A DNA stretch of 51,887 nt from a virus (lineage: Duplodnaviria > Heunggongvirae > Uroviricota > Caudoviricetes): positions 80,429-132,315 of IMG/VR virus record IMGVR_UViG_2524023210_000007. The stretch is one strand, 5' to 3'. The notes beneath the pieces are model-generated. The model was not told the origin of the DNA and ran no database searches. It saw nothing but the letters and a program-made list of their open reading frames with translations. This document shows positions 29,424 through 47,338 of this stretch, one piece after another (position 1 is the first letter of the stretch; each line of letters opens with the position of its first letter). The position numbers were made by a program, and so were the translations under genes.

Positions 29424-29686
29424 GCGAACAGCTCGGCGCCTTGCGGCGTGATCTTCACGTAGGTGCCGCTCTCGTGCATCCACAGCCAGCCGCGCTCGAT
29501 CGCGAACTTGAGACAGGCGCCGTACTCGGCGGGCTTGGCCCTGTCCTGGAACAGAAACGGGTAATTGATCTTCTCGATATGGATGCGGCCGTCCTGGACG
29601 GGCTCGATGGCGCGCGCGAGCTCCATCAGGCGCCGGGCGGCTACTTCGGGGTCGTCGTATCGCGGTCTATCTTCGACATATTTCAT
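29420..29686 (-). CDS. Hypothetical protein (possible winged helix)
   Basis: 88 aa, coupled; C-terminal GTYVKIT..G. Confidence 0.6.
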
Positions 29687-31844: not shown

Positions 31845-31997
31845 CGTGATTTCGACTTCAGGATGATCGCCCCTGCAAGGACATAAGGCGATCCGCTGAC
31901 TCGGTACTGGTCCCCTTCAGTGGGGCGGTAAACGGTGGTTTCCGACAGCGAAGTTTTTCTTTTGGCCGGGCCAGTCCCGGCCGTTTGTGAATTTCAC

Positions 31998-32072
31998 GCC
32001 GGCGTGGCGCAACGGTAGCGCAGCGCTCTCGTAAGGCGAAGGTCGTCAGTTCAAATCTGACCGTCGGCACCA
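31998..32072 (+). tRNA. tRNA-Thr(CGT)
   Basis: Cloverleaf, loop CT-CGT-AA, encoded CCA. Confidence 0.9.
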
Positions 32073-32073
32073 T

Positions 32074-32149
32074 GCTCCGTTAGCTCAGTGGTAGAGCAGC
32101 GCTTTTGTAAAGCGCAGGCCGCAGGTTCGATCCCGTGCACGGAGCACCA
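32074..32149 (+). tRNA. tRNA-Thr(TGT)
   Basis: GCGCT-TT TGT AA-AGCGC; irregular T stem; CCA. Confidence 0.85.
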
Positions 32150-32179
32150 ATCCAACTTGCAAGATTTTCTTTCAGGTTC

Positions 32180-32254
32180 GCTTCCATCGTTCAGCCGGCA
32201 GGACACCGCTTTGGTAAGGCGGCGACGCAGGTTCGAGCCCTGCTGGAAGCACCA
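32180..32254 (+). tRNA. tRNA-Thr(GGT)
   Basis: CCGCT-TT GGT AA-GGCGG; CCA. Confidence 0.9.
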
Positions 32255-32256
32255 TC

Positions 32257-32335
32257 GCGCCGGTAGCCCAACATGGCAGGAGGCATCTCGTTCAGGCCGA
32301 GAGCAGTGCAGGTTCGAATCCTGCTCGGCGCACCA
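32257..32335 (+). tRNA. tRNA-Leu(CAG), short variable loop
   Basis: TCTCG-TT CAG GC-CGAGA; 5-nt variable region; CCA. Confidence 0.85.
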
Positions 32336-32339
32336 ATTC

Positions 32340-32416
32340 GCCCGTGTAGCCCAATCGGTAGAGGCGGCGCTTTCAAACGGCGCGCGTTCGCGGTTCGAAT
32401 CCGTGCACGGGCACCA
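32340..32416 (+). tRNA. tRNA-Leu(CAA), short variable loop
   Basis: GCGCT-TT CAA AC-GGCGC; 5-nt variable region; CCA. Confidence 0.85.
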
Positions 32417-32421
32417 TCTTC

Positions 32422-32505
32422 GCGCGGCTGGCGGAATGAAGACGCAGCAGGTTTAAACCCTGCCGGCCAACGGTCGTCTCGGTTCAAGTCCGAGGCCGCG
32501 CACCA
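32422..32505 (+). tRNA. tRNA-Leu(TAA)
   Basis: GCAGG-TT TAA AC-CCTGC; long variable arm; CCA. Confidence 0.9.
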
Positions 32506-32701
32506 GATTGCGAAGGCGTCGAAACTCCACCGCAGATCGGCGAGATGAATATCTCTGGATAGTGGAGACGCATCGCCTCGATGAGGTTTTCAAGCGCTGC
32601 ACGTCCTGCGCCTGGTGGCACGTCGCTGGGCCCCCACAACGCGAACTCCTTAGGTGTTTCGTTGCAAAACACCGTGAGGGCAAGGAAAGGCTCTTCGGCC
32701 A

Positions 32702-33022
32702 TCACGCGCTCTTCGGCAACGTCTTGATCTTGGCGAGGTCGTCGGCAAGTTTCTGCTTGCTCTGCCAAAGATCGTAGTCCGTCTGCATGTCGGCCCACAA
32801 GTCGGGGCCGTTCCCGAAGAACTTGCCGAGACGCTGCGCCATGTCGGGCGAGATCGGAGACGGATTGTCCTCGCTCATGATGCGACCGAGCGTGACTTTT
32901 GTGGTTCCGATCAGGGGAGCGGCCGACGAAGCATTCAATCCGGCGTCGGCAAGCGCCGTTGCCAGGATGCGGCCAGGATGCGTCGGGGGGCGCTGGCGCG
33001 GGCCTGCCTTGTATTCAGCCAT
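32702..33022 (-). CDS. higA: HigA-family antitoxin (XRE HTH)
   Basis: PPTHPGRIL, ISPDMAQRLGKFFGNGPDLWADMQTDYDL; follows higB. Confidence 0.9.
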   Translation of the reverse strand: MAEYKAGPRQRPPTHPGRILATALADAGLNASSAAPLIGTTKVTLGRIMSEDNPSPISPDMAQRLGKFFGNGPDLWADMQTDYDLWQSKQKLADDLAKIKTLPKSA

Positions 33023-33059
33023 GACGATCTCCGGGGTGACGGGAGGGGCTTCGCGCCCC

Positions 33060-33338
33060 TCAGTGATATTGTTCAAAGTCGACACGATCGGCCTCTCCTT
33101 TATCAAATTCGAAGGTTATCCGCCAAGCGCCGGTTACCCAGATGGAATAGCGAACCGGCTTGAATTGCTTCAGGGGGTGCGTGTTGAACCCCGGAAGGTC
33201 GAGCGCCTGTAAGTTCGTCGCCCTGTTGAGAACGTCAAGCCGTTCAATGACTTTGGCTTGGAGCTTGGAGTCGATCCGGGCGGTGTGGCCCTTCTCGAAA
33301 AGCTCTTTGAGACCTTTGTGTTTGAAGCTCTTAATCAT
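33060..33338 (-). CDS. higB: HigB (RelE-superfamily) toxin
   Basis: MIKSFKHKGLKELFEKG...HPLK...YSIWVTGAWRITFEF...VDFEQYH. Confidence 0.92.
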   Translation of the reverse strand: MIKSFKHKGLKELFEKGHTARIDSKLQAKVIERLDVLNRATNLQALDLPGFNTHPLKQFKPVRYSIWVTGAWRITFEFDKGEADRVDFEQYH

Positions 33339-33348
33339 GAGAAGGAGC

Positions 33349-33386
33349 GTAACGCAATGTGTTACTCAAGTAAAGCGTTTTGTTAC
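33349..33386. promoter_or_regulatory. Two palindromic operator boxes upstream of higBA
   Basis: GTAACGCAATGTGTTAC (33349-33365) and GTAAAGCGTTTTGTTAC (33370-33386). Confidence 0.65.
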
Positions 33387-33403
33387 TTTCCTGAGGTTAT
33401 TTT

Positions 33404-33478
33404 GCGCGCTTAGCTCAGCGGTAGAGCGCCTGTTTTACACACAGGATGTCGGCCGTTCGATCCGGTCAGCGCGCACCA
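33404..33478 (+). tRNA. tRNA-Val(TAC)
   Basis: CCTGT-TT TAC AC-ACAGG; CCA. Confidence 0.92.
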
Positions 33479-33661
33479 AAGGTTGAGGCGATGGAATCGA
33501 AGGGCAGGCATGCTCGAGGCATCCACGTCTCCTCGAAGCCAGATTGATCCGCGCGCGGCGGGGTCACGCCCAGGTCTGCGCGCGCGATGACAACATCTGT
33601 GTCCCGTGGTTCTGGCTGAAGGTCGCCGGGTCGTCCCCGGTCGCTAACGGGACTCGAATTT

Positions 33662-33736
33662 GCGTCCGTAGCTCATCAGCAGAGCGCCGCTGTGACATGG
33701 CGGAGGCGGCAGGGGCGGCACCTGCCGGACGCACCA
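33662..33736 (+). tRNA. tRNA-Val(GAC), non-canonical T-loop
   Basis: CCGCT-GT GAC AT-GGCGG; T-loop GGCGGCA; CCA. Confidence 0.8.
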
Positions 33737-33737
33737 G

Positions 33738-34013
33738 TTATCTCTCGGACAGTCGCGCGATGAGGGCAGCCGTAACGGCATCCTGCACCGACGTAGAAAG
33801 GCGCTGCTGCGGAATGAGGGCTGATGGTTTCTGACGATCGATATAGTGGTCAGCAGCCTCTTCAGAGCCGAGCAACTTAACAAGCGATGCTCGAAATTTC
33901 GCGGAGTCTTTTTTCGGTCTCACATCTTCGGCTGGCCGGGCAGTGCTGGTGCCGAGCTGGAAGTACCGTTTGTCTTGGTTCGCCGGTTGGGCGAAGGGCT
34001 GATAAACCTGCAT
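33738..34013 (-). CDS. Hypothetical protein antisense to the array
   Basis: 91 aa filling the gap between two tRNAs. Confidence 0.45.
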   Translation of the reverse strand: MQVYQPFAQPANQDKRYFQLGTSTARPAEDVRPKKDSAKFRASLVKLLGSEEAADHYIDRQKPSALIPQQRLSTSVQDAVTAALIARLSER

Positions 34014-34072
34014 GGTATCTCCGAAAGGGGGCCTAATAATATCGCAAGCGTGCGGAGTTGCGAGTCTAATTT

Positions 34073-34147
34073 CCACCTTTAGCTCAGCAGCAGAGCGTCC
34101 GGCCGATAACCGGGAGGTCCGTGGGGCAGCACCACGAAGGTGGACCA
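34073..34147 (+). tRNA. tRNA-Ile(GAT), non-canonical T-loop
   Basis: TCCGG-CC GAT AA-CCGGG; T-loop GGCAGCA; CCA. Confidence 0.8.
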
Positions 34148-34218
34148 TCATCTGGAAGAGGCCGAAAATGCACTCTCAATTCAAACCGGCGCGGCTCGCC
34201 GCCGCAACCATCGACCCT

Positions 34219-34309
34219 GGATCGGTAGCCAAGTTGGTCGACGGCCCGGAACTTTTAATTCCGCGGGACATGCGCCCCGCCGTGAGTTCGAATCTCACCC
34301 GATCCTCCA
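34219..34309 (+). tRNA. tRNA-Lys(TTT) with long variable arm
   Basis: CGGAA-CT TTT AA-TTCCG; 18-nt variable arm; T73; CCA. Confidence 0.8.
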
Positions 34310-34313
34310 TCAT

Positions 34314-34402
34314 GGACGAGTAGCCAAGCGGTCGACGGCATCGGCTTCTTAACCCGACGGGCCTTGAGCCCCGCGCTGGTTCGAATCCAGCCTCGTTCAC
34401 CA
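34314..34402 (+). tRNA. tRNA-Lys(CTT) with long variable arm
   Basis: Loop TT CTT AA; variable arm CGGGCCTTGAGCCCCGC; CCA. Confidence 0.8.
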
Positions 34403-34405
34403 ATG

Positions 34406-34564
34406 TCAGTTTTCGCGAGGCAGTTTTGCGATTGCTCGCCCGAGCATAATCTCGATGCACCGTCCGCAGACCAGTTCGCCGTTGCCGGCCGGCGGCGCGA
34501 GAACGACCAGTTGATCTGGTTCGAATTCTTCTTCGCAGTGATCACAGCGAGGGCTTTCGAGCAT
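34406..34564 (-). CDS. Small zinc-finger protein antisense to the array
   Basis: CDHC...CGRC, 52 aa, fits between tRNAs. Confidence 0.5.
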   Translation of the reverse strand: MLESPRCDHCEEEFEPDQLVVLAPPAGNGELVCGRCIEIMLGRAIAKLPREN

Positions 34565-34579
34565 CCCACATTTACCTAC

Positions 34580-34663
34580 GCGCTTGTGGCGGAATTCGGT
34601 AGACGCAGCGTCTTGAGAGGGCGCCGGGAAACCATGCCGGTTCGAGTCCGGCCTAGCGCACCA
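34580..34663 (+). tRNA. tRNA-Leu(GAG)
   Basis: GCGTC-TT GAG AG-GGCGC; variable arm; CCA. Confidence 0.9.
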
Positions 34664-34684
34664 TCTTTGCAGAAAATGCAAATT

Positions 34685-34760
34685 GCCCATGTCCCCATCT
34701 GGTGAAGGGACCGGATTGTCGATCCGGCAAAGGCGAGTTCGATCCTCGTCATGGGCGCCA
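34685..34760 (+). tRNA. tRNA-Asp(GTC)
   Basis: CCGGA-TT GTC GA-TCCGG; G73; CCA. Confidence 0.9.
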
Positions 34761-34764
34761 ATTC

Positions 34765-34841
34765 CGGCGTGTAGCGCAGCCAGGTAGCGCACCTCGTTCG
34801 GGACGAGGGGGCCGCAGGTTCAAATCCTGCTACGCCGACCA
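34765..34841 (+). tRNA. tRNA-Pro(CGG)
   Basis: CCTCG-TT CGG GA-CGAGG; CCA. Confidence 0.92.
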
Positions 34842-34847
34842 ATTCAC

Positions 34848-34923
34848 GGTCCTGGAGCCAGATGGGAAGGCCGGCCGCTCATAACGGCCAGATGAGGGTG
34901 TTCGATCCACCCCAGGACTACCA
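34848..34923 (+). tRNA. tRNA-Met or Ile2 (CAT)
   Basis: GGCCG-CT CAT AA-CGGCC; CCA. Confidence 0.8.
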
Positions 34924-34954
34924 TGTAAACTGCGGACCCGAGAGGAGGTCGACG

Positions 34955-35491
34955 ATGTTTCACGCCAATCCGGCGCTTATCTTGAACGCCGACTTCCAAC
35001 CATTGAGTTATTTTCCGCTCTCGCTCTTCAGTTGGGAGGAGGCGGTGCGCTCGGTGGTGAAGGGATCGCATGTCGTGGTCGCGGAATACGACCAGGTCGT
35101 CCGCAGCCCCTCGACGGTGATGCGGCTCCCCTCTGTGATCGCGCTGCGCGAGTACGTGCGGCCGCCGGCTCGAGTCGCCTTCACGCGGTTCAACGTCTTT
35201 CTCCGCGATCGCTTCCGCTGCCAATATTGCGGCGAGCAGCATCTGCGGGGCGAGTTGACATTCGACCACGTCGTGCCGCGCGCGATGGGCGGCAAGACCG
35301 AATGGACCAACATTGTTGCGGCCTGCAGCCCCTGCAACACGCGCAAGGACAAGCAGGTTTGGAAGCCCTTGCGGGTGCCGTTGGAGCCGACACAGTTCGA
35401 TCTGATGGCGGCGCAGCGGCTCTTTCCGCCGAACTTCCTGCACGAATCCTGGCTCGACTTCCTGTATTGGGATTCCGAGCTCGAGAAGTAA
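34955..35491 (+). CDS. HNH endonuclease
   Basis: GGAGG RBS; LILNADFQPL N-terminus; CQYCG...TFDHVVPR..GG...WTNIVAACSPCNTRK. Confidence 0.92.
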   Translation: MFHANPALILNADFQPLSYFPLSLFSWEEAVRSVVKGSHVVVAEYDQVVRSPSTVMRLPSVIALREYVRPPARVAFTRFNVFLRDRFRCQYCGEQHLRGELTFDHVVPRAMGGKTEWTNIVAACSPCNTRKDKQVWKPLRVPLEPTQFDLMAAQRLFPPNFLHESWLDFLYWDSELEK

Positions 35492-35493
35492 AC

Positions 35494-35531
35494 GCGCCGG
35501 CGGCGACGAGTTTGTGTCCGCCGGCGCACCA
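35494..35531 (+). other. Hairpin ending in ACCA (acceptor-stem mimic)
   Basis: GCGCCGGCGG / CCGCCGGCGC 10-bp stem followed by ACCA. Confidence 0.55.
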
Positions 35532-35532
35532 T

Positions 35533-35608
35533 CACCACGTAGCTCAACTGGATGAGCACGACCCTCCGAAGGTCGAGGATGTAGGTTCGAGTCCTATCGT
35601 GGTGGCCA
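35533..35608 (+). tRNA. tRNA-Arg(CCG)
   Basis: CGACC-CT CCG AA-GGTCG; CCA. Confidence 0.9.
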
Positions 35609-35609
35609 T

Positions 35610-35697
35610 GGGGGAGTAATCGGCGGGGACGCCGGCGCCGTTTTGAAAACGGCTGGGTGCGCCAGCACTGCGGATCAAGACCAGCACTCCTCCGCCA
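35610..35697 (+). tRNA. tRNA-Ser(TGA), atypical D and T arms
   Basis: GCCGT-TT TGA AA-ACGGC; variable arm; G73; CCA. Confidence 0.75.
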
Positions 35698-35701
35698 TTT
35701 T

Positions 35702-35788
35702 GGGCAGTGAACCGGCCGGGCGGCCGGCCTCCGTTGGAAGCGGAGTGGGCGCCTCGGCGCTGCGGATCGAGCCCGCCGCTGTCCGCCA
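35702..35788 (+). tRNA. tRNA-Ser(GGA), atypical D and T arms
   Basis: CTCCG-TT GGA AG-CGGAG; variable arm; G73; CCA. Confidence 0.75.
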
Positions 35789-35792
35789 CCTT

Positions 35793-35880
35793 GGAGAGTC
35801 AACCGGACAGGCGCGCCGGCACGGCTTCGAAAACCGATGGCACCGCAAGGTGTGAGGCTCATGTCCTCGGCTCTCCGCCA
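35793..35880 (+). tRNA. tRNA-Ser(CGA), atypical D and T arms
   Basis: Loop TT CGA AA; variable arm GGCACCGCAAGGTGT; G73; CCA. Confidence 0.7.
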
Positions 35881-35916
35881 CGCTGCTCCCATAATCGTGG
35901 CCTATCCGCGATCGCC

Positions 35917-36261
35917 ATGAGCATTTCGCGACGAGGCTTTCTCGGTGCCGCCCTGGGCTTGCTCGGTGGTGCAGGTGCTGCACGATCGGCGCCGGCGAGC
36001 GGCGGTGTTGTTCTGGGCATCGACGGCGGCGCTGTCCTCGGCGAGGCCGGTACAGAACTCGTCATGCCGCTGCCCGGCCATCCTGCTGGCGGCTTTCCGG
36101 TACCGGATCACATTGCGGATGCCCTGCGCGGCTGGCTCACTCGGGGTGAGATCCTGAAGGCCGAGCGCGCGATCTATTCTGTCTACGGCGGATGTACCCG
36201 GGACATGCCTGAGGAGTTGGAAGCCTCGGCACCTATCGCAGGGTCGAGCACCGGGCGCTGA
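35917..36261 (+). CDS. Hypothetical protein with twin-arginine signal-like N-terminus
   Basis: MSISRRGFLGAALGLLGG; 3' end overlaps next tRNA. Confidence 0.45.
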   Translation: MSISRRGFLGAALGLLGGAGAARSAPASGGVVLGIDGGAVLGEAGTELVMPLPGHPAGGFPVPDHIADALRGWLTRGEILKAERAIYSVYGGCTRDMPEELEASAPIAGSSTGR

Positions 36262-36320
36262 TCAGGCTCATAACCTGATGCCGAAAGGCAAAGTCGGTTC
36301 GATTCCGACCCCTGCAACCA
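36237..36320 (+). tRNA. tRNA-Met(CAT), initiator-like, long variable arm
   Basis: C1xA72 mismatch; TCAGG-CT CAT AA-CCTGA; GCC-GAAA-GGC variable arm; CCA. Confidence 0.75.
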
Positions 36321-36337
36321 ACTTGGAGGTGAATGCC

Positions 36338-36550
36338 ATGGACGCGCTGCTTCAGTTCTTCGCTTACGAGCACCTGCCGCCGCACCTCCAGGCGGTCAGT
36401 GCGCCATTCGGCGATCTGGCACGGGAAATGGCGCGATCGCTTCCGACCAATCCGGAAAGTGCGACGGCCATGCGGAAACTCCTCGAGGCGAAGGACTGCG
36501 CCGTTCGTGCCGTGCTCTTCAAGCCATTGTCGTCAGCCGTCATGGACTAA
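36338..36550 (+). CDS. Conserved small helical phage protein
   Basis: GGAGG RBS; QFFAYEHLP.HLQ.VS.PF..LA...RKLLEAKDCAVRA. Confidence 0.75.
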   Translation: MDALLQFFAYEHLPPHLQAVSAPFGDLAREMARSLPTNPESATAMRKLLEAKDCAVRAVLFKPLSSAVMD

Positions 36551-36569
36551 CGACAAGATCTCGAATTGG

Positions 36570-36728
36570 GCCGGGTGGAGCGACCGGACAATGCGGGGAC
36601 GTTTTGAGCCAAGGATCCGCACCCCAATCTCTGCTGCCAGGCGGCGCCTGCAAGCCGGGCCCGCAACCCCTGATTCAGTTCGGGGGCTCTGGATAGGGAT
36701 GGAGGGCGCGAGATCGCCTGGCAGCGGA
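36570..36728 (+). ncRNA. Candidate structured RNA in array spacer
   Basis: 13-bp stem CTGCTGCCAGGCG/CGCCTGGCAGCGG enclosing further hairpins. Confidence 0.4.
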
Positions 36729-36741
36729 CTTCTTCATTCTC

Positions 36742-36826
36742 GGGTAACGCCAAGTCTGGTGACTGAGCGGGGCTGTAAACCCTGCGCCTTAGCGCATGCC
36801 GTGTTCGATTCACGGGTTACCCACCA
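36742..36826 (+). tRNA. tRNA-Tyr(GTA)
   Basis: CGGGG-CT GTA AA-CCCTG; variable arm; CCA. Confidence 0.85.
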
Positions 36827-36834
36827 TCTTCAAC

Positions 36835-36908
36835 GCGGACAAAAGATTACGGCAGTCGGCGAGTATGCCATGCTCGCAGCGGCGGTTCGACTCCGCCTGT
36901 CCGCACCA
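36835..36908 (+). tRNA. tRNA-Gly(GCC), degenerate D arm
   Basis: CGAGT-AT GCC AT-GCTCG; A73; CCA. Confidence 0.7.
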
Positions 36909-36916
36909 ATTTTTGA

Positions 36917-37016
36917 GGGGGCGCGCACCAGATGCCGGTCGCTCCGGCTGATGGAAAGGCGCGAGCCGGAGTTGATCGCCCGGTGTGAGGTGGTGCGAAT
37001 CCATCCGCCCTGTCCA
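36917..37016 (+). ncRNA. tRNA-like RNA with enlarged anticodon arm
   Basis: Acceptor GGGGGCG/CGCCCTG, T arm GGTGG-TGCGAAT-CCATC, 9-bp arm with 14-nt loop, TCCA end. Confidence 0.5.
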
Positions 37017-37021
37017 AATTC

Positions 37022-37096
37022 GCCTGGATAGCTCAGTGGTAGAGCGGCGTCTTGAAGCGGCGCGCGCCGGTGGTTCGATCCCATCTCCAGGCACCA
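37022..37096 (+). tRNA. tRNA-Phe(GAA)
   Basis: GCGTC-TT GAA GC-GGCGC; CCA. Confidence 0.9.
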
Positions 37097-37103
37097 CGAC
37101 AAC

Positions 37104-37175
37104 GGGGAGCGCGCAAGGGCGCAGCTGATGTTTGCACCATCGGCGCGGTCGGGGCGGTACCGACGCTCTCCACCA
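37104..37175 (+). tRNA. tRNA-Ala(TGC), shortened D arm, non-canonical T-loop
   Basis: G3:U70; loop TT TGC AC; T-loop GGCGGTA; CCA. Confidence 0.7.
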
Positions 37176-37187
37176 TCATCACCAGCA

Positions 37188-37251
37188 CGACCTGCCGATT
37201 TTCGGTCGACCTGCACTTTGGCGGTCGACCTGCCGGTTTGGCTGGACCTGC
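37188..37251 (+). repeat. Four SGACCTGC repeats, period 19/19/18 nt
   Basis: Copies at 37188, 37207, 37226, 37244. Confidence 0.8.
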
Positions 37252-37255
37252 ATAT

Positions 37256-37341
37256 TGCTCGGTGGGGGAATTGGTAGACCCTCGCGACTGTTAATCGCGC
37301 GCCGAAAGGCACTGCAGGTTCGAAGCCTGCCCGAGCAGCCA
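37256..37341 (+). tRNA. tRNA-Asn(GTT) with long variable arm
   Basis: CGCGA-CT GTT AA-TCGCG; GCC-GAAA-GGC variable arm; G73; CCA. Confidence 0.8.
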
Positions 37342-37394
37342 ACCGACAAGGTCCCGAATCGGCGCATCAAATGATGCGGCAAAATGGGACCAAT

Positions 37395-37469
37395 GCTGCC
37401 ATCGTCTAGTGGCCAGGATGCCCGGTTCTCAGCCGGTCGACGCCGGTTCGAGTCCGGCTGGCAGTGCCA
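37395..37469 (+). tRNA. tRNA-Glu(CTC)
   Basis: Loop TT CTC AG; G73; CCA. Confidence 0.88.
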
Positions 37470-37474
37470 ATTCG

Positions 37475-37655
37475 AAGCGAGCGCCAGGACGCGCGAGGTG
37501 GAGCGCCGGTCAGTGCCGGCAGCTTCTCAGCCGCGCGCGGATCGGCGCAGCGCTGGACGTGATCTCGGGGCGGACCTGGTCGATCGGCAGGTCTCAGGCG
37601 AAGCGCGCCGCGCGCATCGAGACGAGAAGTCGAGGGGAAACCTCGGCGAGGCGAG
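37475..37655 (+). ncRNA. Candidate structured RNA in array spacer
   Basis: CGAGGT/ACCTCG closing stem, GCCGG hairpin, GCTTCTC/GAGAAGT and GCGCGCGG/CCGCGCGC stems. Confidence 0.45.
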
Positions 37656-37660
37656 AGTTT

Positions 37661-37739
37661 GCCCGCGTAACCGGCTCTGCCTACGAAGCAGAAGTACCGT
37701 AACTGGAGCATGCAGGTTCGACTCCTGCCGCGGGCTCCA
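37661..37739 (+). tRNA. tRNA-Arg(ACG) lacking a D arm
   Basis: Acceptor GCCCGCG/CGCGGGC; 8-nt linker; TCTGC-CT ACG AA-GCAGA; 19-nt variable region; canonical T arm; CCA. Confidence 0.7.
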
Positions 37740-37745
37740 AATCAT

Positions 37746-37824
37746 CAGCGTGTAGGGGAGCCTGGTCGTCCCTACCTGCCTTGGAAGCAGGGGATCGGTG
37801 GTTCGAATCCACCCACGCTGACCA
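37746..37824 (+). tRNA. tRNA-Pro(TGG)
   Basis: CCTGC-CT TGG AA-GCAGG; CCA. Confidence 0.88.
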
Positions 37825-37902
37825 TCATCTGCCCGTTGATAACATCGCAAGAAGTTCTTCTGCGATCGTTGAGACGTGCGATCTATCCCGCGGGCTTGAT
37901 TT

Positions 37903-37983
37903 TTTGGGCGAGCCCCAGGCGTTCGGTTATCCAACCATTGATGGAAAAGCCCCGATCGCCGTTCTTACGTTCGCCCTCAAAGA
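37903..37983 (+). ncRNA. Y-RNA-like module 1 (minimal)
   Basis: GGGCGAG-CCCCAG...TTCGGTTA 5' arm and CCCGAT...CGTTCGCCC 3' arm, shared with modules 2-4. Confidence 0.6.
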
Positions 37984-37984
37984 T

Positions 37985-38117
37985 ATCGGACGAGCCCCAG
38001 AAGTTCGGTTACCCTTGCTAAGGTAGAGGTCGGCGGTTCGAATCCGTCTCGGGAGAAATCCCGATAGCTCAGTGGTAGAGCGCTAAATCCCGATCTTCGC
38101 TCTCACGTTCGTCCGGT
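37985..38117 (+). ncRNA. YrlA-like Y RNA with circularly permuted tRNA domain
   Basis: Shared stem plus T arm (GGCGG-TTCGAAT-CCGTC), acceptor stem closed by GAAA, then D arm (GCTC-AGTGGTA-GAGC); upstream of Ro60. Confidence 0.8.
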
Positions 38118-38134
38118 CACCTTTGAGGTTTTCG

Positions 38135-38263
38135 ACAGACTGGTTTGCGGGACCGAGCCCCAGAGGTTCGCTTATCTGGATATAGCAGGTTCGACTCCCG
38201 CCATGGCCGCAAGGCCGTGTAAACGCGATCTCGCCATCACGCTCGGCCCCGCAAACCGGTCTG
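38135..38263 (+). ncRNA. Y-RNA-like module 3 (T arm plus acceptor mimic, no D arm)
   Basis: Long outer stem; GCAGG-TTCGACT-CCCGC then CATGGCC-GCAA-GGCCGTG. Confidence 0.7.
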
Positions 38264-38278
38264 CCATCTCGGAGGCCC

Positions 38279-38371
38279 ATCAACTCGAACGAGCCCCAGG
38301 AATTCGGTTATCAGCAATCTTGAAACTTGCACCGAACCCCGATTTCCGCTCTCCCGTTCGTTCGAGTTGAT
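38279..38371 (+). ncRNA. Y-RNA-like module 4 (minimal)
   Basis: ATCAACTCGAACG/CGTTCGAGTTGAT outer stem; shared internal motifs. Confidence 0.65.
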
Positions 38372-38399
38372 CGGCCTCACCAACTCAGAGGAGGCCAAC

Positions 38400-40025
38400 A
38401 TGAAGTATGCAGGACTGATCGCGGCTGACGTGCCGCAGAGCGAGCCGCTGAATGCGCGGCAGGTCAAGAACAACGCCGGTGGTTTCGTATTCGCGATCGA
38501 CAATTGGGCGCGGCTCGACCGCTTCCTGATCCTCGGCAGCGATGCGCCGACCTATTACCAGACCGCGCGGGCGCTGACCCGCGAGAACGCCAAGGTCGTC
38601 GACGAGTGCTACGCCGCGGATCCGGCCCGCACCGTCGCGCGTACGGTCGAAATCTCTGATCAGGGCAGGGCGCCGAAGAACGATCCGGCCATCTTCGTCC
38701 TGGCCATCGGCGCCGTGCATGCCGACCAGAAGGTGCGCCAGCTCGCGTTGGCGGCTGTCCCGAAGATCTGCCGGACCGCGACGCACTTGTTCCAGTTCGT
38801 CAAGGCGGCGCGATCGCTCGGCCGTGGCTGGGGACGGTCGCTGAAGACGGCGATCGCGAACTGGTACAACTCGAAGTCCCTGGATGACGTGGCGTACCAG
38901 GCCATCAAATACCGCGAGCGCGAGGGCTACTCGCACAAGCGGCTCCTCCAGACAGCCCACCCGGCCGCCTCGGAGTCGCCGGCGCGGATCGCGCTCTATC
39001 GCTGGATGCGCGGGCTCGATCCCGGCGGAGAACTCCCGGCGATCGTGCAGGCTCACCTGAAGGCGATGACTCCGGATTTGGGGAAGGGGCATGTCCTCGA
39101 CCTCATCAAGGAGCACCGCCTGCCTTGGGAAGCGCTGCCGACCGAGTACAATGGAGATCCGGATGCATGGCGCGCCATGCTCCCGACTCTTGGGCTCGGC
39201 GCCATGGTCCGCAATCTCGGCAATATGTCCCGGCTCGGCGCCATCAAGCCGCTGTCGGAGTCCGAGGCCGTCGTGGTCAGCCGGTTGTCCGATGAATCCG
39301 CAATCCGGAAATCCCGCCTGCACCCGTTCTCGATCCTGTTGGCCATGGCAGTCTATTCGTCCGGCCGCGGTGTTCGGGGTGCTGGTGCATGGGACCCGTC
39401 CCGGGCCGTGGTCGATGCGCTCGACGGCGCCTTCTACAAGGCGTTCGCCAACGTGCAGGCGAGCGGCAAGCGGATTCTCATCGCGCTGGACGTTTCGGGT
39501 TCGATGGGCTCTCCGATCATGGGATCTCCGATCTCCTGCCGCGATGCCACGGCGGCACTGGCACTGGTCACCATGTCGACTGAGAAGCAGACCCATGTGG
39601 TCGGCTTCACATCGGCGGGTCACGCTCAGCGGCGCTACGGCGGGCAATGGGGTGGCGGCGAGGCTGGGTTGTCGCCTTTGGCGATCTCACCGCGCCAGCG
39701 CCTGACCGACGCCGTGAGAGCGGTGTCAAATCTGCCTTTCGGTGGAACGGACTGTGCCCTTCCGATGCTGTACGCGCTGGAGAAGGGCCTCGAGGTCGAT
39801 GCCTTCTATGTCTATACCGATAGCGAGACTTGGGCCGGAGACGTCCATCCGGTCAAGGCCCTCCAGCAGTATCGGCAGAAGACGGGCATTCCAGCCAAGC
39901 TGGTGGTGGTCGGCATGACGTCGACCGGCTTCTCGATCGCGGATCCGAGCGACGCCGGCATGCTTGATGTCGTCGGCTTCGACGCCGCGGCACCGCTCGT
40001 CATGGCGGATTTCGTTCGCGGCTAA
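38400..40025 (+). CDS. rsr: Ro60/TROVE-domain RNA-binding protein
   Basis: GAGGAGG RBS; QVKNNAGGFVF, GRAPKNDPAIFVLA, KYREREGYSH, vWA MIDAS ALDVSGSM, LDVVGFD. Confidence 0.93.
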   Translation: MKYAGLIAADVPQSEPLNARQVKNNAGGFVFAIDNWARLDRFLILGSDAPTYYQTARALTRENAKVVDECYAADPARTVARTVEISDQGRAPKNDPAIFVLAIGAVHADQKVRQLALAAVPKICRTATHLFQFVKAARSLGRGWGRSLKTAIANWYNSKSLDDVAYQAIKYREREGYSHKRLLQTAHPAASESPARIALYRWMRGLDPGGELPAIVQAHLKAMTPDLGKGHVLDLIKEHRLPWEALPTEYNGDPDAWRAMLPTLGLGAMVRNLGNMSRLGAIKPLSESEAVVVSRLSDESAIRKSRLHPFSILLAMAVYSSGRGVRGAGAWDPSRAVVDALDGAFYKAFANVQASGKRILIALDVSGSMGSPIMGSPISCRDATAALALVTMSTEKQTHVVGFTSAGHAQRRYGGQWGGGEAGLSPLAISPRQRLTDAVRAVSNLPFGGTDCALPMLYALEKGLEVDAFYVYTDSETWAGDVHPVKALQQYRQKTGIPAKLVVVGMTSTGFSIADPSDAGMLDVVGFDAAAPLVMADFVRG

Positions 40026-40031
40026 CGACTC

Positions 40032-40060
40032 GAGCGGGGCGCACGCGCCTCGCTCTTCCA
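40032..40060 (+). other. Hairpin ending in TTCCA after rsr
   Basis: GAGCGGGGCG-CACG-CGCCTCGCTC 10-bp stem. Confidence 0.5.
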
Positions 40061-40061
40061 T

Positions 40062-40137
40062 CGGGGATTAGCTTAGTGGCTTAAAGCACCGCGCTCTGAC
40101 CGCGGCACCGTCGGTTCGAATCCGGCATCCCCTGCCA
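40062..40137 (+). tRNA. tRNA-Gln(CTG)
   Basis: CCGCG-CT CTG AC-CGCGG; CCA. Confidence 0.88.
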
Positions 40138-40144
40138 ATTTTAT

Positions 40145-40218
40145 CGCGCGAGGTCCGGGCGGTTAGGACGCGGTCTGCAAAACCGTGAAGACGGGTTCGA
40201 CTCCCGTTCGCGCATCCA
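40145..40218 (+). tRNA. tRNA-Cys(GCA)
   Basis: GCGGT-CT GCA AA-ACCGT; U73; CCA. Confidence 0.85.
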
Positions 40219-40265
40219 TGGAACAAAAACGCCAAAATCGAAGATTTTTTTCAGATCTTTTGCAC

Positions 40266-40341
40266 GCGCTCGTGGGCCAACTGGACGGCCAGCGGATTTC
40301 TACTCCGCCGCATGAGGGTTCGAGTCCTTCCGAGCGCGCCA
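40266..40341 (+). tRNA. tRNA-Arg(TCT)
   Basis: GCGGA-TT TCT AC-TCCGC; CCA. Confidence 0.9.
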
Positions 40342-40342
40342 A

Positions 40343-40588
40343 CTAATCGGACAGATGTCTTGCGAGATGTTTCTCGATGATGTCGACCAGGCTCAGATCG
40401 TCGGGCCAATCGTTGTCGCCGTGCTCGGCGCAGATCCGGCGCAAAGCTGCGATCGCTTTTCCGCGCTCGATGAGCCAATCATGATTGTCCCGCTCCTCAC
40501 CGCCGAGATTTGTCAGGGCCTCGAGCAGCATCTTGCGCCATGCCGCCCGGCTGCCTTCGACGTAGGCTCGTTCCTGGTCTGGGCTCAT
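40343..40588 (-). CDS. Hypothetical protein antisense to the array
   Basis: 81 aa exactly filling the Arg-Ser gap; AAAGGAAC RBS. Confidence 0.6.
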   Translation of the reverse strand: MSPDQERAYVEGSRAAWRKMLLEALTNLGGEERDNHDWLIERGKAIAALRRICAEHGDNDWPDDLSLVDIIEKHLARHLSD

Positions 40589-40608
40589 TGATTTGTTCCT
40601 TTCGAATT

Positions 40609-40695
40609 GGAGAGGTGGCCGAGCGGTAAGGCAGCGCCTTGCTAAGGCGCCGAGTCCTTCGGGATGCGCAGGTTCGATCCCTGTCCTCTCCGCCA
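40609..40695 (+). tRNA. tRNA-Ser(GCT)
   Basis: GCGCC-TT GCT AA-GGCGC; variable arm; G73; CCA. Confidence 0.92.
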
Positions 40696-40879
40696 ATCCA
40701 TGAAGCGGCCGACTGCGGTGTCGGTGCGCGGGGCCAACCCAGTTGCAAACTTTTGCTGATCGCGTGCCCATGCAAAGAGTTCGCTATCTTCAAAATAGAC
40801 GTCGAGTTTTCCGTCGACGATGATCTCATCGGAACGGCGAACATATTCTGTCATGGTCCCCATCAGAAATCCTTCCATA

Positions 40880-40954
40880 GCGGGCTTGGCGTACTGGGGT
40901 GCGCGCTTGGCTTCCATCCAAGAGGTAGGTGTTCGATCCACCTAGCCCGCACCA
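40880..40954 (+). tRNA. tRNA-Gly(TCC)
   Basis: CTTGG-CT TCC AT-CCAAG; A73; CCA. Confidence 0.8.
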
Positions 40955-40958
40955 ACAA

Positions 40959-41216
40959 TCAGATCTCGACAGCGAAGCCGGCCTTATCGCCATAGCCGAT
41001 GCGCAGCGGAGTGCCGCAAAGGGTGTCGACTTTTCTGGCCTCGAGATTGAAAGTCGCTTCCGATCCCATCGCGCGATATTCGAGTTTGATGGCGCTGTTG
41101 AATTGACGCGCCGCCGTCTCGTCGGCGAAACGAATATCGACCGCGGCCGGCATTTCGAGATTGTGCTGGCGACAGAACTGCTGGAGCGCCAGCATCATTT
41201 TCGACAGATCTTTCAT
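40959..41216 (-). CDS. Hypothetical protein antisense to the array
   Basis: 85 aa filling the Gly-Glu gap; its GGGAG RBS is the antisense of the Glu acceptor stem. Confidence 0.55.
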   Translation of the reverse strand: MKDLSKMMLALQQFCRQHNLEMPAAVDIRFADETAARQFNSAIKLEYRAMGSEATFNLEARKVDTLCGTPLRIGYGDKAGFAVEI

Positions 41217-41219
41217 ATT

Positions 41220-41294
41220 GCTCCCTTCGTCTACTGGCTAGGATATCACTCTTTCACAGTGAGGAAACGGGTTCGATCCCCGTAGGGAGCGCCA
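41220..41294 (+). tRNA. tRNA-Glu(TTC)
   Basis: TCACT-CT TTC AC-AGTGA; G73; CCA. Confidence 0.92.
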
Positions 41295-41299
41295 TCAAT

Positions 41300-41388
41300 T
41301 CGGGGATGACCGAGCCAGGTTAAGGTACCCGCCTTTGAAGCGGTGGTCGGCGATCGCCGCGCGCGTTCAAATCGCGCTCCCCGGGCCA
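41300..41388 (+). tRNA. tRNA-Gln(TTG) with long variable arm
   Basis: Loop CT TTG AA; variable stem CGGC-GATC-GCCG; CCA. Confidence 0.75.
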
Positions 41389-41885
41389 GCACCTGGCCGC
41401 CAATCGCCGATGCCGCGTTCGTCGCCGAATCGGTCGCGCACGCCGACCATGTCGAGCCTCAGAGGCCGGTGCCTGCGCTTGCCGCTGGTGGAGATTTGTT
41501 CCTCGTACTGGCTTCCGAGCATGGTGCAGTCACGCCAGTCTTCGTCATCGCCGGCGAGATCCGGGTGCTGTTGCCACATTCTGCAGGTGTTGCCGTCGTT
41601 CGGATGCATGCACTCGGCATCGCTTCCTTCCGGTTCACGTGCCAGCTTGGCGTCAGATTGCAGATCCGGAGGCAATCCTTTCTGCGCCCGCGACAGCGCG
41701 GTTACGAGTCCACCAATTCGGTCGAGGTTGTACTTTCGCTCCGCCCAGATCGGGTTGACGCCTCCGCGTCCCATGATGGCGTCCTGATCTACGGGAGCAC
41801 CGCAAGCGATCATGCCGTCCTGGCGATAGCACGCGCGAGCGCAGGTGCCGCACCGTTTCATCGTATCGGTTTTCAACGTGATCAT
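41367..41885 (-). CDS. Cys-rich hypothetical protein antisense to the array
   Basis: CGTCARAC...C; fills the Gln-Met gap. Confidence 0.5.
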   Translation of the reverse strand: MITLKTDTMKRCGTCARACYRQDGMIACGAPVDQDAIMGRGGVNPIWAERKYNLDRIGGLVTALSRAQKGLPPDLQSDAKLAREPEGSDAECMHPNDGNTCRMWQQHPDLAGDDEDWRDCTMLGSQYEEQISTSGKRRHRPLRLDMVGVRDRFGDERGIGDWRPGAGPGSAI

Positions 41886-41958
41886 CGCAGGGCCTCTCGG
41901 GTAGGGTCTCGGTCTCATAAATCGGGATAGGGCGGTTCGAAGCCGCTACCTGCGACCA
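41886..41958 (+). tRNA. tRNA-Met(CAT), degenerate
   Basis: CGCAGGG/ACCTGCG; loop CT CAT AA; CCA. Confidence 0.65.
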
Positions 41959-41965
41959 TCCATTC

Positions 41966-42040
41966 TCCGACTTCGTCTATCAGCTAAGGCGCTCGGTTGT
42001 GGACCGGGAAAACGCGGGGCAGCACCGCGAGTCGGGACCA
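41966..42040 (+). tRNA. tRNA-His(GTG) without G-1, with A73
   Basis: CTCGG-TT GTG GA-CCGGG; T-loop GGCAGCA; CCA. Confidence 0.8.
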
Positions 42041-42045
42041 TTCTT

Positions 42046-42119
42046 GGGAGTGTCGTCTAGTGGTAAGACGCCGGCCTCCAAACCCGGCTACGTGGGTTCG
42101 ATTCCTGCCGCTCCTGCCA
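42046..42119 (+). tRNA. tRNA-Trp(CCA)
   Basis: Loop CT CCA AA; G73; CCA. Confidence 0.85.
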
Positions 42120-42450
42120 TCCCTTCAAGCGCGAGACGTGCGCGCAGCGCCGCGATGCAGATTGCAATCGCTGCCGGTCGGACCTTGTCCGATACCTCGA
42201 TCCCGCGGCCGGTGCCCGTCGGATACTTCTCCTTGCGGAATAGCTGCACCATCCCCCACTCGTTGATGTTCCAAGTGTACTCGGCCGGCACCAAGGTCAG
42301 GGCTGCGTCGATCGATGCTAAAAAATCCGGGATCTCGTCGTCCGCCATGTCGCCTTCCATCTCGCGATAGAAGTCGAGTCGGGCGATGGCGGCATTGAGC
42401 TCGAACGATGACTCGGTCGCGTTCGTCAGCCGTTCGATCAAGTCCATCAT
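42088..42450 (-). CDS. Hypothetical phage protein
   Basis: SIDAALTLVP motif seen in small phage proteins; C-terminus overlaps tRNA-Trp. Confidence 0.55.
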   Translation of the reverse strand: MMDLIERLTNATESSFELNAAIARLDFYREMEGDMADDEIPDFLASIDAALTLVPAEYTWNINEWGMVQLFRKEKYPTGTGRGIEVSDKVRPAAIAICIAALRARLALEGMAGAAGIEPT

Positions 42451-42830
42451 GTTGTCACCTTCATTGGAAATGCGGCGAGCGCCGCGGCTTCGAACTCGGA
42501 CCGCCTAGCATCCAGGATCTCCCGAGGCGGAGACTGCCACGCCAAGATGCGTCTAGAAGGGTCTCTAGTGGCGTACTCTTCCTTCCACTGCTGGTTCCAA
42601 TCTGACCACAGCTTTGCCTCATACCGCTTTCGATCGCGCCACTGGTCGAGGCAGTTGATTCCGCAGTAATGGTGATCGCGGTCGAGGGGCAATGACACGG
42701 CCATAGCGGTCACAGATGGACCTTGCACGGCCCGCGTCTCGACGACGAGAGCAAGTCGATAGTCGAAGCAATTTCCCGTCGACGTGATGTCAGCTCCGCA
42801 GCCGTCGCATTTGATCTCGATGGTTTTCAT
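42447..42830 (-). CDS. Hypothetical protein with CxxC motifs
   Basis: CDGC, HYCGINC; coupled. Confidence 0.55.
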   Translation of the reverse strand: MKTIEIKCDGCGADITSTGNCFDYRLALVVETRAVQGPSVTAMAVSLPLDRDHHYCGINCLDQWRDRKRYEAKLWSDWNQQWKEEYATRDPSRRILAWQSPPREILDARRSEFEAAALAAFPMKVTT

Positions 42831-42842
42831 CTCGTTCCTCGT

Positions 42843-43379
42843 TCAGAATTCAGGGGACGCATCAATCAGGTCGAGTTCGGCCTGGCGGAGAGAAGCCCAC
42901 GCCTGCTCCAGGAGCGATGCCGGCGCCTTCGTCAGGATCTCGAGCGTGGCGCGCTTCTCCGGCAGATACGTCTTGGCGAAGCCTGGATTGTGCTTTGCGA
43001 TTGTCGACGTGTTGCTGATCAGGTCTGCGCACTTCACACCTTGGCTTTCGGCCCCAGCCGTCGCGAGCCGAGAGCGGTCGATCTCCTTCCGGCGCGCGCG
43101 GTTCAAGCCCGGCGTTGGCGGCGTATCGGTGAGATAGTGCACGATCAGCGCGACGCCGGATCCGAACTTTGCGCAGATCTCCGGGATTGAGGCATCGGTG
43201 TCTTCCACGGTGTCGTGAAGCCACGCCGCGGCGATCGCGGTCTCGGACATGCCGGCGCGCTCCACGATGCGGGCAACTTCCTCGAGATGAACGAAGTACG
43301 GTTCGCCGGTGTATTCGCGCAGCTGCTTCACGTGCTTCTTCCGCGCGAATTCGCGAGCTCGGAAGACCAGATCATTCAT
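42843..43379 (-). CDS. HD-domain hydrolase, Mesh1 / small alarmone hydrolase-like
   Basis: H..QLR..TGEPY.VH, LHDTVEDT, LTD, VKCADLISN: RelA/SpoT hydrolase motifs, no synthetase domain. Confidence 0.85.
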   Translation of the reverse strand: MNDLVFRAREFARKKHVKQLREYTGEPYFVHLEEVARIVERAGMSETAIAAAWLHDTVEDTDASIPEICAKFGSGVALIVHYLTDTPPTPGLNRARRKEIDRSRLATAGAESQGVKCADLISNTSTIAKHNPGFAKTYLPEKRATLEILTKAPASLLEQAWASLRQAELDLIDASPEF

Positions 43380-47111: not shown

Positions 47112-47157
47112 TGGTGAGCGCGGAGGGACTCGAACCCTCGACCCCATGATTAAAAGT
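47112..47157 (-). other. att core: 3' half of a host-type tRNA-Lys(TTT)
   Basis: Minus strand ACTTTTAATCATGGGGTCGAGGGTTCGAGTCCCTCCGCGCTCACCA; no 5' half upstream; next to integrase. Confidence 0.85.
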
Positions 47158-47274: not shown

Positions 47275-47318
47275 GTGTAGCACCGAATTTGCTACACGGT
47301 GCTACATGGGTGCTACAC
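47275..47318. repeat. TGCTACA repeats (putative integrase arm sites)
   Basis: One inverted copy (47275-47282) and three direct copies (47290, 47300, 47311). Confidence 0.65.
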
Positions 47319-47338
47319 GAATCCGCGCAGAGAGCACC

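Follow-up and report, generated by a model that had tools for sequence, protein, structure and literature searches.

Phage complexes of Ro60 with Y RNAs bind host PNPase (PMC12135203), and the bacterial rsr-yrl-rtcBA operon is reported to respond when tRNAs are damaged (PMC7790460). The tRNA array of Anabaena, one of the arrays known as L-arrays, is induced by translational stress and protective under it, and has HNH and rtcB genes as neighbors (PMC8421152). Sets of tRNA and RNA-repair genes in jumbo phages have been read as counter-measures to host RNases (PMC7824862), and the small alarmone hydrolases (SAHs) MESH1 and ATfaRel strip pyrophosphate from tRNA CCA ends (10.1101/2021.04.30.441581). 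Here we analyze a prophage locus that holds a tRNA array, Y RNA genes, a Ro60 gene and an SAH gene. It lies in a stretch of 51,887 nt (hereafter the window; IMG/VR record IMGVR_UViG_2524023210_000007, positions 80,429 to 132,315), which corresponds to nt 80430-132316 of contig C4 in a 9.03-Mb Bradyrhizobium-like genome. We consider it probable that nt 31998-42119 of the window are a phage-borne, mobile L-array, with a Ro60/Y-RNA module inserted between tRNA-Pro(UGG) and tRNA-Gln(CUG), and that the array acts by maintaining the tRNA pool. As judged from sequence, the cassette most likely keeps translation going when tRNAs are attacked.

Ro60 and Y RNA genes lie within a large tRNA array

With default settings, ARAGORN found 31 tRNAs in the window; they all lie on the + strand, and nt 31998-42119 contain every one of them. 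Rfam, used with an E-value threshold, added Ile-GAT (34073, 43 bits), Ser-TGA (35610, with a long variable arm) and an odd Arg-ACG (37661), and relaxed ARAGORN added Ser-GGA (35702) and Ala-TGC (37104, with a G3-U70 pair). A scan for a 7-bp acceptor stem plus N-CCA recovered all of these additions, together with Ser-CGA (35793) and His-GTG (41966). The resulting set comprises 38 tRNA-like genes in 10.1 kb, all on the + strand, every one of which encodes the 3' CCA. The seven beyond the default ARAGORN set are the non-canonical members. Each of the 20 amino acids is represented, and by standard wobble rules the ~36 anticodons should read every codon box but CUA. The array and the genes that share its strand are as follows.

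31998-32505, + strand: tRNA block 1 (Thr-CGT, Thr-TGT, Thr-GGT, Leu-CAG, Leu-CAA, Leu-TAA); ARAGORN, and Rfam tRNA at 48-64 bits
33404-34923, + strand: tRNA block 2 (Val-TAC, Val-GAC, Ile-GAT, Lys-TTT, Lys-CTT, Leu-GAG, Asp-GTC, Pro-CGG, Met-CAT); ARAGORN, Rfam and stem scan
34955-35491, + strand: HNH endonuclease gene; Pfam HNH_5 and HNH
35533-37824, + strand: tRNA block 3 (Arg-CCG, Ser-TGA, Ser-GGA, Ser-CGA, Met-CAT, Tyr, Gly-GCC, Phe, Ala-TGC, Asn, Glu-CTC, Arg-ACG, Pro-TGG); ARAGORN default or relaxed, Rfam and stem scan
37903-37979, + strand: Y RNA module 1, short, a handle and a small hairpin; covariance model R1 at 62.3 bits, fold, and orthologues in C9 and G302
37985-38117, + strand: Y RNA module 2, with a full permuted tRNA-like domain (T arm, closed hairpin, D arm); R1 at 93.9 bits
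38148-38251, + strand: Y RNA module 3, a handle, a T-arm-like hairpin and one further hairpin; R1 at 74.2 bits, fold
38284-38366, + strand: Y RNA module 4, short, ending ~30 nt 5' of the Ro60 ATG; R1 at 68.8 bits, fold z-score -6.3
38400-40025, + strand: Ro60 (Rsr) gene, 541 aa; Pfam vWA_Ro60 at 1e-64 and TROVE at 6e-34
40062-42119, + strand: tRNA block 4 (Gln-CTG, Cys, Arg-TCT, Ser-GCT, Gly-TCC, Glu-TTC, Gln-TTG, Met-CAT, His-GTG, Trp); ARAGORN, Rfam and stem scan, in an order common to relatives

The array has the features of an L-array: it is long, same-strand, closely spaced and non-periodic, it is supernumerary and foreign, and an HNH gene is associated with it. The host has 57 tRNAs outside the array, among which we found no near-identical copies of array tRNAs; the best matches were mostly short fragments, the longest of them 59-65 nt at 85-86% identity. 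The start of the HNH gene was set at the third Met, because earlier starts overlap tRNA-Met. HNH orthologues (60-80% identical) occupy the same slot in six related arrays, and a 40% identical homologue follows tRNA-Met within a 27-tRNA array on a Mycolicibacterium plasmid.

The Ro60 protein contains a TROVE domain and a vWA domain with an invariant MIDAS motif, D-x-S-x-S (D375, S377, S379). It matches the NCBIfam Rsr model over its full length (E 1e-155), with a score of 519 bits that is below the equivalog cut-off of 900. No second Ro60 was found in the genome. The start codon at 38400 has a GGAGG 6 nt upstream, and tRNA-Gln begins 36 nt past the stop codon. With ~30 nt on the 5' side and 36 nt on the 3' side, there is no room for a promoter or terminator of its own. 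These tight flanks suggest that Ro60 is probably expressed from the same transcripts as the neighboring RNAs and released by tRNA processing. Promoter and terminator scans of the region gave no excess of sites over shuffled sequence. A GC-rich hairpin with a T-rich tail (31964-31995), conserved in the corresponding array of Bradyrhizobium sp. C9, lies ~3 nt 5' of the first tRNA; it is not a clear terminator but could be a leaky one, or a processing signal.

Four Y RNA modules precede Ro60

We built a covariance model (R1) from an alignment of 30 units taken from the window and seven related loci, and searched 88 sources totaling 1.57 Mb. In the window, R1 finds exactly four modules, directly 5' of Ro60. 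Across all sources it gave 147 matches, all on the Ro60 strand and nearly all within ~1 kb upstream of Ro60. As seen by eye and by folding, the modules are built alike: an internal loop of 4 nt by 8 nt separates the outer stem from an upper helix that ends in UCGG/CCGA. Over the 147 homologues, pairing of this handle is kept in 92.9% of cells, versus 66.6% for shuffled and 32-43% for slid alignments; the alignment was fitted to the model, which biases these values somewhat toward the structure. Double changes were seen in 15 of the 17 handle pairs. The arrangement is that expected of Ro60-associated Y RNAs, namely same-strand, adjacent RNAs of stem, internal loop and stem, at least one of which carries a tRNA-like domain.

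At its gathering score of 69 bits, the Rfam YrlA model (RF02553) finds nothing in the window and nothing in six related loci. Module 2 is the sole YrlA match among the four, at 40.6 bits (E 1.4e-7), below the gathering score, and the match (model positions 23-88) covers the tRNA-like part alone.

Array tRNAs differ from those of the host and of relatives

We compared the array with that of C9, which has 33 tRNAs in the same order, four Y modules, an HNH gene, a Ro60 that is 86% identical as a protein and an SAH gene, all in place. Conservation was 75% for tRNAs versus 45% for spacers. For tRNA genes matched in order and anticodon, identity ranged from 52 to 98% (mean 75%), and was 89% for upstream DNA. 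On sequence grounds this points to tRNA bodies that were replaced gene by gene or that diverge fast. Canonical Ala, His and Arg-ACG genes fill the matching slots in related arrays, so the window versions of these three are diverged tRNA genes rather than chance folds.

The tRNA-His of the window has A73 and lacks G-1, which is the alphaproteobacterial rule, whereas the tRNA-His genes of actinobacterial cassettes have G-1/C73. That these identity elements track the host clade argues, at the level of sequence, that the array tRNAs are charged. The Met-CAT of block 3 has a C1/A72 mismatch and is initiator-like.

Several array tRNAs are of unusual length. Lys-UUU and Lys-CUU (34219-34402) measure 91 and 89 nt and have long variable arms; with Met-CAU (36237-36320), Asn (37256-37341) and Gln-UUG (41300-41388) they make up a group of 84-91 nt with such arms. 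The Lys, Asn and Gln orthologues in C9 are of normal length. Lys-CUU remains 87 nt long in two related arrays (G210 and G179), and a tRNA-Asn of 86 nt occurs in the Mycolicibacterium plasmid array. Leu-CAG and Leu-CAA (32257-32416) are short, at 77-79 nt. The usual GG is missing from the D loops of Val-GAC, Ile and His, and the D arm of Ala is itself atypical; the T loop of the C9 His orthologue is normal.

The cassette recurs in related proviruses and in chromosomes

The same gene order, with array, Y RNAs and Ro60, was found in C9 (listed as L016 among our loci), in G210 and G179, which are metagenome-assembled genomes (MAGs) of the host's family, and in L018, L019 and L025, which are further alphaproteobacterial MAGs. 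Among 300 other genomes of the host's family, a linked Ro60 was found in two, both with the same ordered array. In G210 and G179, an RtcB gene lies between tRNA-Pro(UGG) and the Y RNAs. Several alphaproteobacterial loci have a gene for a protein of ~70 aa after Ro60.

Closely related elements carry different subsets of these parts. G302 is a complete 94-kb phage with terminal repeats; its Ro60 is 85% identical, and it has three Y RNAs and zero tRNAs. A same-strand cluster in this phage consists of SAH, an RlaP nucleotidyltransferase, a 155-aa gene, the Y RNAs and Ro60. In four isolate proviruses (108-121 kb), SAH directly follows tRNA-Trp of the same array. In two of these, L105 and L107, Pro(UGG) directly abuts Gln(CUG), and array and SAH are present without Ro60. 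In another, the sister provirus L104, the Pro(UGG)/Gln(CUG) slot is filled by a different TROVE+vWA protein of 450 aa (7138-8490, - strand) and a Y-like RNA (8737-8873).

A scan of species representatives gave 80 Ro60 loci, 56 of them spanning at least 15 kb. Among these 56, Y RNA matches were present in 53, arrays of at least 10 tRNAs in 17 and RtcB in 16; RtcB accompanied Ro60 in 12/17 loci with an array versus 4/39 without one, counts that draw on related elements and are not independent. The array-bearing loci comprise the alphaproteobacterial MAGs of the same gene order and many MAGs of Gaiellales and Solirubrobacterales. In Alphaproteobacteria and Actinomycetota, chromosomes carry compact versions, in most cases together with RtcB. 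Two cassettes are flanked by ordinary cellular genes, which shows that the cassette also resides outside prophages. An RlaP-like gene lies between Ro60 and RtcB in six actinobacterial cassettes (at ~12.2-13.2 kb in L050, L051, L055, L058, L068 and L076).

The SAH gene keeps company with tRNA arrays and RNA-repair genes

Beyond the last tRNA lies an SAH gene.

42843-43379, - strand: SAH, a Mesh1/SAH-type HD_4 protein of 178 aa, convergent with the array; Pfam HD_4 at 5e-15

The protein consists of a single HD_4 domain of ~180 aa with the catalytic HD and ED motifs, and its nearest relatives of solved structure are Listeria Lmo0812 (1e-15), human MESH1 (5e-15) and fly MESH1. Being encoded on the minus strand, SAH does not share a transcript with the array. 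In C9, an orthologue that is 78% identical occupies the same place.

To scan viral contigs for SAH, we used an alignment of three orthologues. At least five tRNAs were found nearby at 18 of 71 viral SAH loci, compared to 2 of 80 control loci, which were defined by a neighboring gene of the window, that for SOS-response-associated peptidase (SRAP); both of the tRNA-positive controls stem from the window's own phage lineage. On L114, a 164-kb phage contig, SAH lies inside a 30-tRNA array (7400-12900). Its neighbors there are a GNAT protein, a P-loop kinase (AAA_33), a calcineurin-like phosphoesterase and a dual-specificity (DSP)-type phosphatase, which together look like a putative set of RNA end-healing enzymes. 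One further viral contig groups RtcB, SAH and RlaP. Together with the published ability of MESH1 and ATfaRel to strip pyrophosphate from the CCA ends of tRNAs, this gene company favors a role at tRNA ends over damping of the stringent response. Our analysis thus makes tRNA-end healing, or action against toxic small alarmone synthetases (toxSASs), the more likely function of SAH, over general stringent-response damping.

Other genes of the region and the prophage setting

A toxin-antitoxin pair is embedded in the array in antisense orientation.

32702-33338, - strand: higBA toxin-antitoxin pair (higB 33060-33338, higA 32702-33106)

HigB matches the Pfam HigB-like toxin family (E 6e-13) and HigA matches NCBIfam TIGR02607 (64 bits versus a cut-off of 48). 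In the type II arrangement, higB is upstream of, and overlaps, the gene for the helix-turn-helix antitoxin HigA. No higBA counterpart was found in related arrays, and the pair is unique to this prophage. From these comparisons we take higBA to be a recent insertion and not part of the system.

A sequence-only reading of this DNA had named the same parts, and most of its assignments were borne out. Its count of 38 same-strand tRNAs for all 20 amino acids is the one reached by ARAGORN, Rfam and the acceptor-stem/CCA scan combined, and its four Y-RNA-like modules are those the covariance model picks out, with a covarying stem. The identities it gave for Ro60, HNH and higBA agree with Pfam and NCBIfam matches. 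The Mesh1-like HD hydrolase that it placed in the system is indeed an HD_4 protein with solved MESH1-type relatives, with the correction that it sits on the minus strand, outside the array transcript.

Between tRNA-Met and tRNA-Tyr lies a 90-aa open reading frame (36278-36550, + strand); its C9 copy is 82% identical, and it has no family match. Antisense open reading frames at 33738-34151, 40343-40771, 40959-41216 and 41367-41918 gave no family matches and have no homologues in related loci, and the same is true of the minus-strand open reading frames beside SAH. For these reasons neither group was counted among the parts. Two further genes lie between the lysis genes and the array: one encodes a 999-aa protein in which a methyltransferase domain is fused to a family-2 glycosyltransferase (25611-28610, - strand), the other an SRAP (29683-30345, - strand).

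Tail, lysis and head genes show that the array is carried by a prophage. Attachment repeats were found through tRNA-Lys: the 3' 46-48 nt of tRNA-Lys(UUU) are repeated at nt 329, 10825 and 127541 of C4, and an intact tRNA-Lys is at 142890. Repeats at three sites imply three elements in tandem. The array-bearing prophage extends from 10872 to 127541 of C4 (~116.7 kb). It is integrated in tRNA-Lys, with its own integrase at the left end (C4 10981-12267) and the array at the right end.

47112-47157, no strand assigned: right-hand prophage attachment repeat, which duplicates the 3'-terminal 46 nt of tRNA-Lys(UUU); repeat copies on C4

Another integrase gene, at 47306-48631 of the window, was considered as the prophage's own and rejected; it belongs to an adjoining 15-kb island. 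A comparison of the DNA beside this integrase with upstream DNA, in search of attachment repeats, gave chance matches only. A megablast search of the region against phage records returned tRNA-sized matches only.

A proposed mechanism of tRNA-pool maintenance and its alternatives

We propose that the array block would be transcribed as tRNA-type polycistrons, from which RNase P and 3'-processing enzymes would free the tRNAs, the Y RNAs and the Ro60 mRNA. The spare tRNAs would form a near-complete second decoding set with bodies unlike those of the host. Because of this difference in bodies, translation could persist while anticodon nucleases, toxins or other defenses cleave or block the tRNAs of the host, or under translational stress. 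Ro60, bound to Y RNAs, would recruit host PNPase so that RNA that is damaged or misfolded is cleared. Cut tRNAs would be religated by RtcB and RlaP in sister cassettes. SAH would most likely heal tRNA 3' ends or else remove the alarmones made by toxic synthetases.

A number of observations weigh against this proposal. RtcB is absent from the whole genome, as is RlaP, so this copy lacks a ligation arm; its tRNAs would be replaceable and clearable, but not religatable. We found no toxSAS in the host genome and identified no tRNA-targeting defense in the host. In G179, both Ro60 and RtcB are broken. The array, Ro60/Y and SAH modules occur apart in close relatives (G302; L105 and L107), and being separable, they need not act together; the counts of co-occurrence also come from related elements, as said above. 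With higBA in antisense inside it, the array cannot be covered by a single transcript. The quality of the tRNAs is uneven as well. The Rfam gathering score is passed by 27 of them, and five (Ser 35702, Ser 35793, Ala 37104, Met 41886 and His 41966) are unscored by the Rfam tRNA model even with lax filters, although all five are backed by a cloverleaf, an anticodon and a position in the order common to relatives. Arg-ACG at 37661 has no D arm. The T loop is non-standard (GGCAGCA, GGCGGCA or GGCGGTA) in Val-GAC (33662-33736), Ile (34073-34147), Ala (37104-37175) and His (41966-42040). The tRNAs that fail Rfam, the missing D arm and the four odd T loops could be signs of decay.

Decay is part of the view that the array is cryptic, selfish cargo, spread and kept by HNH and phage transfer, mostly silent and slowly degenerating, in which Ro60 and Y RNAs reside only because tRNA-like RNAs insert and are processed easily in tRNA operons. 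Previously studied L-arrays are poorly expressed and horizontally spread (PMC8421152), which fits this view, as do the non-canonical or degenerate tRNAs, the loss of RtcB here, the Ro60 and RtcB pseudogenes of G179, the presence, replacement or absence of Ro60 in the same slot among sister proviruses, and the sporadic distribution (2/300 genomes of the same family). Yet order and anticodons are kept across genera despite divergence of the tRNA bodies, and tRNAs are more conserved than spacers (75% versus 45%). Furthermore, Ro60 is intact and 86% identical to the C9 copy, identity elements follow the host clade, and the Anabaena L-array is inducible and aids survival (PMC8421152). We therefore regard cryptic cargo as unlikely. 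An improbable explanation, in our judgment, is that the array is a plain translation booster that supplies tRNAs for late genes or offsets codon usage, with Ro60/Y RNAs and SAH as unrelated accessories. Large phages are often tRNA-rich, and the prophage is ~117 kb. But the array is no biased subset, as it serves all 20 amino acids and almost all codon boxes. It also turns up in chromosomes as a compact island amid cellular genes, where there are no phage genes to boost, and it is tightly linked with RtcB, RlaP, Ro60 and SAH. The sequence-only reading had spoken of a replaced tRNA pool, and anticodons for nearly all sense codons fit that better than compensation for codon bias.

The same reading had joined all the parts, higBA included, into one coordinated module, in which SAH would hydrolyze (p)ppGpp and damp the host stringent response as a third arm. 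SAH does have the fold and catalytic motif of a (p)ppGpp hydrolase and is linked to arrays. However, it is encoded opposite to the array and belongs to a different operon, in relatives it is accompanied by enzymes that heal RNA ends or repair RNA (RlaP, RtcB, a kinase and phosphoesterases), pyrophosphorylated tRNA is a known substrate of SAHs, and higBA is unique to this element. We give this explanation little credence: the neighbors of SAH elsewhere suggest instead that it heals RNA ends, for example by stripping pyrophosphate from the CCA end of tRNAs. The idea of a coordinated module holds in part. Array, Ro60 and Y RNAs do co-occur, in the same order in all six relatives named above, and the SAH clade is linked to arrays; higBA does not belong, the modules are separable and RtcB is missing. 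Nor is the array as exceptional for a temperate alphaproteobacterial phage as had been claimed, since at least five related proviruses carry similar arrays and the prophage itself is ~117 kb long.

Maintenance of the tRNA pool is thus the reading we prefer. A broader version of it can be put forward tentatively, and we are doubtful that it holds in full. The L-array, HNH, Y RNAs and Ro60, with interchangeable RtcB, RlaP and SAH arms, might be one mobile 'replace, repair and clear' cassette for the tRNA pool, exchanged among large temperate phages and the chromosomes of Actinomycetota and Alphaproteobacteria. SAH might then be a tRNA 3'-end pyrophosphatase directed against CapRel/FaRel2-type immunity, and the fast, gene-by-gene divergence of tRNA bodies under a fixed anticodon order might reflect an arms race with tRNA-targeting nucleases.

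Comparison with known systems

The locus joins two separate literatures, one on tRNA arrays as a reserve for translational stress, the other on Ro60, Y RNA and RtcB as a response to RNA damage; we found no publication that ties L-arrays to Ro60. It also offers a culturable, temperate rhizobial lysogen in which to ask whether spare tRNAs protect translation from tRNA-directed attack. The same lysogen suits questions about a bacterial Ro60 with several Y RNAs and about tRNA-end repair by a phage SAH. It shows, too, that in Alphaproteobacteria and Actinomycetota a large set of Y RNAs next to Ro60 genes escapes the Rfam YrlA model.

Like the Ro60-YrlA/YrlB systems of bacteria and phages, such as Salmonella rsr-yrlBA-rtcBA and Ro60-Yrl1/2 of Thermus phage phiLo (PMC4201824, PMC7790460, PMC12135203), the window encodes a TROVE+vWA ring protein and adjacent small RNAs. 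These RNAs have the same 5'/3' stem, asymmetric internal loop and upper helix, at least one has a tRNA-like domain, and RtcB is linked in sister loci. Unlike those systems, the window has four tandem modules inside a tRNA operon, a handle that is below the YrlA gathering score, and no RtcB, RtcA or RtcR at the locus.

The L-arrays of Anabaena PCC 7120 (the trn operon, PMC8421152) and of Mycobacterium plasmids and phages (PMC5966550) likewise consist of >20 same-strand, non-periodic, supernumerary tRNAs, are sporadic in distribution and have an HNH gene associated, and rtcB occurs near the arrays of relatives. The window array differs in that it resides in a temperate alphaproteobacterial prophage and has Ro60 and Y RNAs embedded in it; Ro60 is unmentioned in both reports.

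Homologues of Ro60 were found in 361 phage records, and most among the matches listed are annotated as 'Ro-like RNA-binding protein'. The nearest phage parallels are Gordonia phage Sixama (MN484601) and Mycobacterium cluster C phages, in which an annotated Ro-like gene (~46-49% identical) lies beside large tRNA arrays. In the 115-kb Sixama genome, the Ro-like gene is followed by ~31 same-strand tRNAs interspersed with HNH genes. The unannotated spacer that separates tRNA-Gln from tRNA-Ile in this phage holds a Y-handle match of 32.8 bits (L103 9855-9977), which lies 1.3 kb downstream from the Ro-like gene. The actinophages differ from the window in host phylum and array order; in the window, Ro60 lies mid-array, four Y RNAs are present, SAH stands at the array end, and the whole is an integrated prophage.

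Jumbo phages with RNA-repair genes and tRNA complements (PMC7824862) have tRNA sets along with RNA ligases, RlaP, end-healing enzymes and sometimes a TROVE protein, whereas the genome studied here is much smaller and temperate, and its copy lacks a ligase and RlaP. The SAH resembles MESH1 and ATfaRel, which act against toxic alarmone synthetases (10.1101/2021.04.30.441581), in its single HD_4 domain, its length of ~180 aa and its HD...ED motif. In contrast to them, the window SAH, whose activity is predicted, has no toxic synthetase partner in this genome; its partners are tRNA arrays and RNA-repair genes. The locus is built, then, from parts and layouts that are already known, and phage Ro60 with Y RNAs has been published before; the new parts may be the cassette-level picture and the link between SAH and tRNA arrays.

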